From a virus (Duplodnaviria > Heunggongvirae > Uroviricota > Caudoviricetes): DNA of 21,308 nt. A program made the position numbers and the translations under genes. Positions 15,934-19,767 of the stretch are shown piece by piece (position 1 is the first letter of the stretch; each line of letters opens with the position of its first letter). The stretch lies in IMG/VR virus record IMGVR_UViG_3300007747_000074, positions 1 through 21,308 of that record; one strand, written 5' to 3'. Below the pieces are notes generated by a model, which was given only the letters and a program-made list of their open reading frames with translations, did no database searches and was not told where the DNA came from.

Positions 15934-18534
15934 ATGAGCACAAAACCACTCTTCCTGTTACGGAAAGCGAAAAAATCATCCGGTGAACCTGACGTCGTCC
16001 TGTGGGCAAGCAACGATTTTGAATCGACCTGTGCCACTCTGGACTACCTGATCGTTAAGTCAGGTAAAAAACTGAGCAGCTATTTTAAAGCTGTTGCCAC
16101 GAATTTTCCTGTCGTTAATGACCTGCCCGCTGAAGGTGAGATCGATTTTACCTGGAGTGAACGCTATCAACTCAGCAAAGACTCCATGACATGGGAACTA
16201 AAACCGGGAGCAGCACCAGACAACGCTCACTATCAAGGCAATACCAACGTCAACGGCGAAGACATGACTGAGATTGAGGAGAATATGCTACTCCCAATTT
16301 CTGGCCAGGAACTGCCCATTCGTTGGCTTGCTCAACACGGCAGCGAAAAACCGGTAACGCACGTTTCACGCGACGGACTCCAGGCATTACACATTGCTCG
16401 GGCTGAAGAACTACCGGCTGTTACTGCCCTGGCTGTTTCCCACAAAACCAGCCTGCTCGACCCGCTGGAAATTCGCGAACTCCACAAACTGGTTCGTGAC
16501 ACTGACAAAGTTTTCCCTAATCCTGGTAATTCAAACCTGGGACTGATAACTGCTTTTTTCGAAGCATACCTGAACGCTGACTACACCGATCGAGGACTGC
16601 TGACAAAAGAGTGGATGAAGGGTAATCGTGTTTCACACATCACTCGCACGGCTTCCGGTGCTAATGCTGGCGGCGGAAACCTCACCGATCGCGGCGAAGG
16701 TTTCGTACACGATCTGACGTCACTGGCGCGCGACGTAGCCACTGGCGTACTGGCCCGTTCAATGGATCTGGACATCTATAACCTTCATCCGGCACACGCT
16801 AAACGCATTGAGGAAATTATCGCTGAAAATAAACCGCCCTTTTCTGTTTTCCGCGACAAATTCATCACCATGCCTGGCGGGCTGGATTATTCCCGCGCCA
16901 TCGTGGTTGCGTCCGTAAAAGAAGCACCAATTGGGATCGAGGTCATCCCCGCGCACGTCACTGAATATCTGAACAAAGTACTGACTGAAACCGATCATGC
17001 CAACCCTGATCCGGAAATCGTGGATATTGCCTGCGGTCGCTCCTCTGCCCCGATGCCGCAGCGAGTAACAGAAGAAGGAAAACAGGATGATGAAGAAAAA
17101 CCGCAACCATCTGGAACAACGGCAGTTGAACAGGGAGAGGCTGAAACAATGGAACCGGACGCAACTGAACATCATCAGGACACGCAGCCGCTGGATGCTC
17201 AGTCACAGGTAAATTCTGTTGATGCGAAATATCAGGAACTGCGGGCAGAACTCCATGAAGCCCGGAAAAACATTCCATCAAAAAATCCTGTCGATGCCGA
17301 TAAATTGCTTGCTGCATCACGTGGTGAATTTGTTGACGGAATTAGCGACCCGAACGATCCGAAATGGGTAAAGGGGATCCAGACTCGCGATTGTGTGTAC
17401 CAGAACCAGCCAGAAACGGAAAAAACCAGCCCGGATATGAATCAACCTGAGCCAGTAGTGCAACAGGAACCGGAAATAGCCTGCAATGCCTGCGGCCAGA
17501 CTGGCGGGGATAACTGCCCTGACTGTGGTGCGGTGATGGGCGACGCAACATACCAGGAAACATTCGATGAAGAGAGTCAGGTTGAAGCTAAGGAAAATGA
17601 TCCGGAGGAAATGGAAGGCGCTGAACATCCGCACAATGAGAATGCTGGCAGCGATCCGCATCGCGATTGCAGTGATGAAACTGGCGAAGTCGCAGATCCC
17701 GTAATCGTAGAAGACATAGAGCCAGGTATTTATTACGGAATTTCGAATGAGAATTACCACGCGGGTCCCGGTGTCAGTAAGTCTCAGCTCGATGACATTG
17801 CTGATACTCCGGCACTGTATTTGTGGCGTAAAAATGCCCCCGTGGACACCACAAAGACAAAAACGCTCGATTTAGGAACCGCTTTCCACTGCCGGGTACT
17901 TGAGCCGGAAGAATTCAGTAACCGCTTTATCGTAGCACCTGAATTTAACCGCCGGACAAACTCCGGAAAAGAAGAAGAGAAAGCGTTTCTGAGGGAATGC
18001 GCAAGCACAGGAAAAACGGTTATCACTGCCGAAGAAGGCCGGAAAATTGAACTCATGTATCAGAGCGTTATGGCTTTGCCGCTGGGGCAATGGCTTGTTG
18101 AAAGCGCCGGACACGCTGAATCATCAATTTACTGGGAAGATCCTGAAACAGCAATTTTGTGTCGGTGCCGTCCGGACAAAATTATCCCTGAATTTCACTG
18201 GATCATGGACGTGAAAACTACGGCGGATATTCAACGATTCAAAACCGCTTATTACGACTACCGCTATCACGTTCAGGATGCATTCTACAGTGACGGTTAT
18301 GAAGCACAGTTTGGAGTGCAGCCAACTTTCGTTTTTCTGGTTGCCAGCACAACTATTGAATGCGGACGTTATCCGGTTGAAATTTTCATGATGGGCGAAG
18401 AAGCAAAACTGGCAGGTCAGCTGGAATATCACCGCAATCTGCGAACCCTGGCTGACTGCCTCAATACCGATGAATGGCCAGCTATTAAGACGTTATCACT
18501 GCCCCGCTGGGCTAAGGAATATGCAAATGACTAA
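15934..18534 (+). CDS. recE: Exodeoxyribonuclease VIII (RecE), full length
   Basis: 866-aa uninterrupted ORF with the large acidic/low-complexity N-terminal region and C-terminal nuclease domain, colinear with K-12 RecE as I recall it; gagg SD about 10 nt upstream. Confidence 0.95.
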
Positions 18535-19336
18535 GCAACCACCAATCGCAAAAGCCGATCTGCAAAAAACTCAGGGAAACCGTGCACCAGCAGCAATTAA
18601 AAATAACGACGTGATTAGTTTTATTAACCAGCCATCAATGAAAGAGCAACTGGCAGCAGCTCTTCCACGCCATATGACGGCTGAACGTATGATCCGTATC
18701 GCCACCACAGAAATTCGTAAAGTTCCGGCGTTAGGAAACTGTGACACTATGAGTTTTGTCAGTGCAATCGTACAGTGTTCACAGCTCGGACTTGAGCCCG
18801 GTAGCGCCCTCGGTCATGCATATTTACTGCCTTTTGGTAATAAAAACGAAAAGAGCGGTAAAAAAAACGTTCAGCTAATCATTGGCTATCGCGGCATGAT
18901 TGATCTGGCTCGCCGTTCAGGTCAAATCGCCAGCTTGTCAGCCCGTGTTGTCCGTGAAGGTGACGAGTTTAATTTCGAATTTGGCCTTGATGAAAAGTTA
19001 ATACACCGCCCAGGAGAAAACGAAGATGCCCCTGTTACCCACGTCTATGCTGTCGCAAGACTGAAAGACGGAGGTACTCAGTTTGAAGTTATGACGCGCA
19101 AACAGATTGAGCTGGTGCGCAGCCAGAGTAAAGCTGGTAATAACGGGCCGTGGGTAACTCACTGGGAAGAAATGGCAAAGAAAACGGCTATTCGTCGCCT
19201 GTTCAAATATCTGCCCGTATCAATTGAGATCCAGCGTGCAGTATCAATGGATGAAAAGGAACCACTGACAATCGATCCTGCAGATTCCTCTGTATTAACC
19301 GGGGAATACAGTGTAATCGATAATTCAGAGGAATAA
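18527..19336 (+). CDS. recT: Single-strand annealing recombinase RecT
   Basis: 269 aa from [35 protein letters not shown]...; ATG 18527 overlaps the recE stop (ATGACTAA); ORF-track N-terminal extension from 18470 lies inside recE and is discounted. Confidence 0.95.
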
Positions 19337-19391
19337 TTCAGCCTGGCGGTGTAATGCACCGCCAACTTGAAATATTTTTATGAGAAAAATT

Positions 19392-19541
19392 ATGAGATAT
19401 GACAATGTTAAACCATGTCCATTTTGTGGTTGTCCATCAGTAACGGTGAAAGCCATTTCAGGATATTACCGAGCGAAGTGTAACGGATGCGAATCCCGAA
19501 CCGGTTATGGTGGAAGTGAAAAAGAAGCACTCGAACGATGA
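19392..19541 (+). CDS. ralR: Restriction-alleviation protein RalR/Lar-like, apparently truncated (49 aa) by an in-frame TGA
   Basis: Hand translation MRYDNVKPCPFCGCPSVTVKAISGYYRAKCNGCESRTGYGGSEKEALER-stop (TGA 19539-19541); downstream in the same frame is NKRTTGNNNGGVHV-stop (to 19586), the C-terminus of the 64-aa protein as I recall it. Confidence 0.55.
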   Translation: MRYDNVKPCPFCGCPSVTVKAISGYYRAKCNGCESRTGYGGSEKEALER

Positions 19542-19578
19542 AATAAACGAACCACTGGAAATAATAATGGAGGTGTTC

Positions 19579-19767
19579 ATGTATAAAATTACCGCCACTA
19601 TTGAAAAGGAAGGTGGCACTCCTACTAACTGGACAAGATATTCAAAATCTAAACTAACGAAATCAGAATGCGAAAAAATGCTCTCAGGTAAAAAAGAAGC
19701 AGGCGTTTCCAGAGAGCAGAAAGTAAAACTGATAAATTTTAATTGCGAGAAACTTCAGTCCTCGTGA
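19579..19767 (+). CDS. ydaC: YdaC-like small protein
   Basis: MYKITATIEKEGGTPTNWTRYSKSKLTKSECEKMLSGKKEAGVSREQKVKLINFNCEKLQSS; alternative upstream starts at 19567 and 19507 exist in the ORF; position between ralR and xis. Confidence 0.5.
   Translation: MYKITATIEKEGGTPTNWTRYSKSKLTKSECEKMLSGKKEAGVSREQKVKLINFNCEKLQSS

Follow-up and report, generated by a model that had tools for sequence, protein, structure and literature searches.

Escherichia coli K-12 MG1655 carries in its Rac prophage the gene ralR (b1348), whose product RalR (Lar; NP_415864.1) is a protein of 64 amino acids. RalR belongs to the Lar family (Pfam PF14354, Lar_restr_allev; TIGR03655, anti_R_Lar). The family takes its name from type I restriction alleviation, and its members combine a CxxC...CxxC zinc-ribbon core and a helix with a C-terminal W-N-x-R motif that is invariant or nearly so. 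DNase toxicity has been reported for the 64-aa K-12 protein, the toxin of the RalR/RalA type I toxin-antitoxin pair, and pairing of the RalA RNA with ralR in K-12 is mediated by a 16-nt repeat (Guo et al. 2014, PMC4041452).

We analysed a stretch of 21,308 nucleotides (positions 1 to 21,308 of the virus record IMGVR_UViG_3300007747_000074, hereafter the window) whose ralR locus shares with K-12 the gene order recE-recT-ralR-ydaC/rcbA-xisR-intR, RalR residues 1–49 at 100% identity, and the RalA gene with its 16-nt pairing site. It differs from K-12 in having an opal codon in place of Trp50, giving a product of 49 amino acids that retains the Lar-family zinc-ribbon core and helix and lacks W-N-K-R and the tail. 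The closest database entry is WP_001443846.1, a 49-aa 'type I toxin-antitoxin system endodeoxyribonuclease toxin RalR' identical to the window's protein, with DNA identical over at least 441 nt. Its carriers include E. coli E2865 and O26, O111 and O103 strains, which share the locus and may differ elsewhere in the prophage. We believe it likely that the window carries a natural nonsense polymorphism of single origin in Rac ralR, and that this allele most likely specifies an inactivated or strongly weakened toxin.

Results and discussion

The ralR locus lies in the integrase-proximal arm of a Rac-type prophage

The window covers ~21 kb at the integrase-proximal end of a Rac-type prophage and carries, in order, trkG, lysis genes, Q, replication and immunity genes, sieB, kilR, ydaE, racC, recE, recT, ralR, a DUF1187 gene, xisR and intR, the last of which runs off the window end. 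On the basis of the open reading frame list and the annotation of identical E. coli E2865 DNA and of the near-identical record ON470616, recE occupies 15934–18534 (+) and recT, directly upstream of ralR on the same strand, ends at 19336. The placement of ralR between recT and ydaC/rcbA, near xisR-intR, is the position expected of the RalR equivalog. At 99.9% identity, the window matches three GenBank 'phage' records (ON470614, ON470616 and ON470590). We rejected the reading of these records as isolated phages: they are PHASTER-predicted prophage regions from assemblies of carbapenemase-producing clinical E. coli, not sequenced virions, and they are no evidence for activity of the element.

The same ralR opal haplotype (441 nt identical) is found in E. 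coli E2865 within a Rac-type prophage that has a different distal half, with an IS3-disrupted ydaU, hokD, a relE/parE (relE-type) pair and tRNA genes in place of the trkG, lysis genes and Q of the window. The int-recE arm seems to be a conserved module that moves among mosaic prophages. Plasmids rather than chromosomes carry 4 of the ~2000 ralR-region matches in complete E. coli genomes. A recT-ralR-ydaC region ~90% identical to that of E. coli Rac is also present in 'Actinobacillus phage vB_Apl-pPE4' (PP818812.1, 142–983), where ralR has TGG at codon 50 and is unannotated, and where the downstream gene is called as a 5'-extended open reading frame; for a Rac-type element, Actinobacillus is a surprising host attribution.

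The intergenic stretch that separates recT from ralR encodes a hairpin (19338–19370, +; core GGCGGTG-TAATG-CACCGCC) with a folding energy of –17.9 kcal/mol (z = –4.56), a stability equalled by none of 200 shuffled sequences. No intrinsic terminator was called here, because the T-run begins ~10 nt past the stem. The hairpin may act on ralR expression from the recET transcript, through RNA stability or attenuation.

A single base change ends the ralR frame after 49 codons

The ralR (lar) coding sequence, 49 codons followed by TGA, occupies 19392–19541 (+), as given by translation, by the PGAP annotation WP_001443846.1 (150 nt) and by the match to the RalR equivalog model NF007260. Read through to 19586, the same frame (19392–19586, +) translates to MRYDNVKPCPFCGCPSVTVKAISGYYRAKCNGCESRTGYGGSEKEALER, a stop, NKRTTGNNNGGVHV and a second stop. 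An alternative ATG upstream, at 19380, would add MRKI at the N-terminus and leaves the finding unaffected. The initial annotation had proposed that the TGA at 19539–19541 truncates ralR, that the frame beyond it encodes exactly the K-12 C-terminus, and that one TGG to TGA change had thereby removed the last 15 of 64 residues; it had also called for an alignment with K-12 ralR. Translation of the window and alignment with MG1655 b1348 bore out each of these points. The orphaned in-frame remnant at 19542–19586 (+), consisting of codons 51–64 (NKRTTGNNNGGVHV) and the original TAA, is identical to K-12. Since these 14 codons and the TAA agree with K-12 base for base, they are not a chance in-frame continuation.

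Across 461 nt, the alignment showed four differences between the window and K-12. The T-run upstream of the ralR start is one T shorter in the window, and the base at 19765, in the DUF1187 gene, is T instead of A. The other two differences are the only ones within the ralR coding sequence: A instead of G at 19541 (+), which turns TGG into TGA and Trp50 into a stop, and C instead of A at 19536 (+), which turns AGA into CGA with Arg49 unchanged. The single-base account given initially thus stood as far as the stop itself is concerned, and it is refined by this second, linked synonymous change at codon 49, which served as a marker in the haplotype counts described below.

The opal codon is the derived state and is not a sequencing artefact

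The A at 19541 is the derived base. Codon 50 is TGG in all seven other Rac-type loci that we aligned (K-12, 683R6, Rac-SA53, pPE4, O145 RM9467, O157 17B6-2 and GN06156), and the Salmonella (…LVRWNKRATENTNGSYHV) and Citrobacter (…LIRWNRRTTDTAPKS) orthologues retain the Trp followed by N-K/R-R. Recorded RalR forms of 64 amino acids include some from E. albertii and E. marmotae. The reverse polarity, in which 49 amino acids would be the original length and the 64-aa RalR of K-12 a stop-to-sense extension, has a precedent next door, where the 69-aa RcbA of K-12 is the outlier and a 62-aa form ended by TGA is common. For ralR itself we rejected it as exceedingly improbable in view of the outgroups just listed and of the wider Lar family, in which 211 of 214 domains have Trp at this position. 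The initial annotation had taken a reference RalR ending at the same position as grounds against truncation. Such a reference does exist in WP_001443846.1, but the entries of this kind are the same derived allele; they are no evidence for 49 amino acids as the native length, as Trp is, judging from the outgroups and the wider family, ancestral.

The possibility of a read error at 19541, which had also been raised initially, was examined by counting exact matches to the 72-mer around the stop in 5426 complete E. coli genomes, of which 1922 have the locus. The window haplotype (CGA-TGA at codons 49–50) was present in 310 complete genomes, sequenced independently in many laboratories, and the same base is found in the three prophage records, leaving an error of sequencing or assembly with next to no probability. 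The K-12 form (AGA-TGG) was present in 1121 genomes, many of them laboratory derivatives, and the intermediate CGA-TGG, exact over 70 of the 72 nt, in 119. A synthetic 72-mer with AGA-TGA matched none of the 5426 genomes, showing no recurrence of the stop on the K-12 background. TGA therefore occurs solely with CGA, and this complete association points to a single origin of the stop. The simplest history consistent with these sequences would be that AGA-TGG or CGA-TGG came first and that one G to A event then took place on a CGA chromosome.

The opal allele accounts for ~16% of ralR-bearing complete E. coli genomes, and the exact 49-aa protein is encoded on at least 1000 public contigs. Among the matches listed, the 441-nt region was 100% identical in all 40 complete genomes, and the carriers ranged from O26, O111 and O103 strains to various clinical isolates from humans. 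PGAP annotates the 49-aa open reading frame as intact ralR (WP_001443846.1). Public databases already contain the allele, listed by a name that conceals the truncation. No paper on a truncated RalR allele came up in a full-text literature search.

Three of the seven invariant Lar-family residues lie beyond the stop

To determine the extent of conservation, 1.84 billion cluster representatives were searched exhaustively with HMMER, which yielded 909 relatives at E ≤ 0.001; conservation was counted over 214 domain alignments from the best 144 of the 909. The residue aligned with W50 was Trp in 211 of the 214 domains, with gaps in the remaining 3. N51 was Asn in 203 and R53 was Arg in 182, a level of conservation comparable to that of the four cysteines (204–212 of 214). 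When 60 diverse single-domain members were aligned with MAFFT, invariance was confined to the columns C9, C12, C30, C33, W50, N51 and R53. The 49-aa product retains the four cysteines of the zinc ribbon and ends at R49, so that W50, N51 and R53, three of the seven invariant residues, are encoded past the TGA together with the rest of the C-terminal W-N-x-R motif. Among 55 single-domain representatives of at most 75 aa, none ended before the Trp, and some stop right after W-N-R-R-V.

Profile scores fell accordingly with the shorter coverage. The PF14354 score dropped from 53.5 to 39.0 bits on loss of profile positions 53–58, remaining above the gathering threshold of 28.6, and the TIGR03655 score dropped from 55.3 to 40.3 bits, a borderline pass at the cut-off of 39.6. 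Against the RalR equivalog NF007260 (curated cut-off 113), the 49-aa product scored 126.9 bits and the read-through 64-aa sequence 166 bits, with the former covering profile positions 1–49 of 64 rather than the full length.

An AlphaFold2 model was built from a 60-sequence alignment with, as query, an E. coli RalR variant of 64 aa that shares 92% identity with K-12. The model (mean pLDDT 78) has a beta-hairpin (17–22/25–30) between the two CxxC knuckles, a helix at 43–52 and a disordered tail at 55–64. In this prediction the stop clips the last turn of the sole helix (W50, N51) and then takes away R53 and the tail, of which residues 55–64 are probably dispensable. Sequence searching for a solved Lar-family structure returned just spurious CbpD matches (E = 0.002 or weaker). 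Foldseek comparison of the model with the PDB gave weak generic zinc-ribbon matches (Elf1/ELOF1, eIF2-beta and Pol III C11, all E > 0.2), which say nothing on whether the fold is that of a nuclease.

Many metagenomic Lar-family proteins (e.g. P0052, P0060 and P0073) have 2–6 tandem Lar domains in a polypeptide of 100–360 aa, and each of the tandem repeats retains the four cysteines and W-N-x-R.

The truncated allele most likely encodes a disarmed toxin

The G to A change at 19541 ends translation after Arg49 and leaves a 49-aa zinc-ribbon fragment with its four Cys ligands, missing the last helix turn and W-N-x-R. We propose that RalR activity, be it DNase toxicity, type I restriction alleviation or both, is most likely lost or strongly attenuated as a result. 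The cryptic prophage would then carry a type I pair with a decayed or disarmed toxin, next to an intact RalA and intact neighbouring genes. The initial annotation had suggested that truncation could alter restriction alleviation or toxicity; with the loss of an invariant motif this suggestion is better grounded than before, and we infer such an effect from the sequence. Other broken ralR alleles are on record, namely that of strain F2_81 (P0005), whose C-terminus is rearranged, and the DUF1187 fusions P0012 and P0015, and they fit relaxed or negative selection on the toxin as an easily lost gene. Two observations speak against inactivation: the 49-aa product still passes the curated thresholds of both the RalR equivalog and the Lar family, and hundreds of genomes carry the allele with no further decay of the 49 codons or of the post-stop remnant. 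This absence of secondary decay is equally compatible with a recent origin, with a functional truncated protein and with constraint from an overlapping feature.

Were the 49-aa zinc ribbon a working RalR, the 15 lost residues would be dispensable and the polymorphism functionally neutral. The thresholds passed, the commonness of the allele without secondary decay, and a tail at residues 55–64 that is predicted to be disordered and is not conserved all favour such a view. The loss nevertheless exceeds the disordered tail by the three invariant positions, a 14.5-bit fall in HMM score over just six profile positions accompanies it, and 0 of the 55 short representatives end earlier, which in our judgement makes a functional truncated RalR unlikely. 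The main caveat to inactivation is leakage at the stop, with near-cognate tRNA-Trp reading the UGA at a low, condition-dependent rate to give the exact 64-aa RalR, so that the allele would specify a low-dose toxin instead of a null. Of the stops in E. coli, UGA is the leakiest, with Trp as the usual misreading (PMC11126739), so that some wild-type RalR may still be made. Readthrough of premature TGA codons ranges from less than 1% to several percent, mostly with Trp inserted, and is higher at low temperature or nutrient scarcity (PMC11126739, PMC7918605). At this particular stop, misreading would restore the native residue, and the frame downstream is fully intact. We found no sign, however, that readthrough has been selected; the intact downstream frame is explained equally well by a recent origin; RF2 is more efficient in non-K-12 strains (PMC11126739); and the region 3' of the UGA showed no stimulatory RNA structure (fold of 19536–19600, –6.2 kcal/mol, z = +0.44). 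A selenocysteine insertion element was likewise absent, with an Rfam scan of the window at gathering thresholds giving RalA alone, and on these grounds selenocysteine incorporation or programmed UGA recoding was rejected. With neither a stimulatory structure nor a recoding element, any readthrough would be basal, and we regard leakage as a poor candidate for what the allele does. If leakage did operate, RalR output would be ~0.1 to a few percent of normal and higher under cold or starvation. It would make a constitutively dangerous toxin stress-conditional and low-dose, and the benefit would carry the haplotype into several E. coli lineages.

About one sixth of ralR-carrying complete E. coli genomes have a 'RalR endodeoxyribonuclease toxin' that is annotated as intact and is without the invariant W-N-x-R. 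The affected strains include O26, O111 and O103 EHEC and carbapenemase-producing clinical isolates, and conclusions drawn in K-12 on RalR toxicity, fosfomycin response and restriction alleviation should not be transferred to such strains without testing. The finding is of value mainly as a caution for annotation and for strain comparison, being otherwise an ordinary nonsense polymorphism of a prophage gene. The natural allele pair also offers a ready-made test of the need for W-N-x-R in Lar/RalR activity.

RalA and the downstream DUF1187 gene

The antitoxin sRNA gene ralA is present at full length at 19585–19763 (–), matching Rfam RF02694 with 225.1 bits (gathering threshold 170) over model positions 1–179 of 179. 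It lies on the strand opposite ydaC, the arrangement expected of this type I toxin-antitoxin pair. The RalA pairing site in ralR (19516–19529, +; codons G-S-E-K-E-A), recognised as a direct repeat of 19688–19701, is unchanged, with 13 of 14 positions identical between the two copies, 11 of them contiguous, and the 14-nt core intact. With 9 nt between the end of the pairing site and the new stop downstream of it, RalA should control translation as before.

The downstream ydaC/rcbA homologue (19579–19767, +) encodes 62 aa and matches the DUF1187 family PF06688 with 132 bits over profile positions 1–61 of 61; PGAP annotates it as 'DUF1187 family protein' (189 nt). The start codon (ATG) of this gene overlaps the TAA that originally ended ralR, and a Shine-Dalgarno sequence of its own, GGAGGT, lies at 19571–19576. 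Any translational coupling of the DUF1187 gene to the old ralR stop would be lost in the opal allele.

The DUF1187 gene ends in TGA (19765–19767) after 62 aa in the window and in every non-K-12 locus that we examined. K-12 RcbA has AGA at that codon and extends to 69 aa (…SSRIALYSN), so that here K-12 is the exception, with a polarity opposite to that in ralR. With the RalA 5' end mapped at 19763, the variable base (19765) falls 2 nt upstream of it, in the promoter-proximal region of RalA.

In some E. coli strains RalR and DUF1187 are fused in one protein, as in P0012 (67 aa) and P0015 (96 aa). The junction in P0012 falls exactly at the common G-S-E-K-E-A / K-K-E-A-G repeat, which suggests a deletion between the direct repeats that form the RalA pairing site; such a deletion would remove most of ralA. 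P0015 shifts into the frame of the downstream gene just past the G-S-E-K-E-A motif and retains nearly all of DUF1187.
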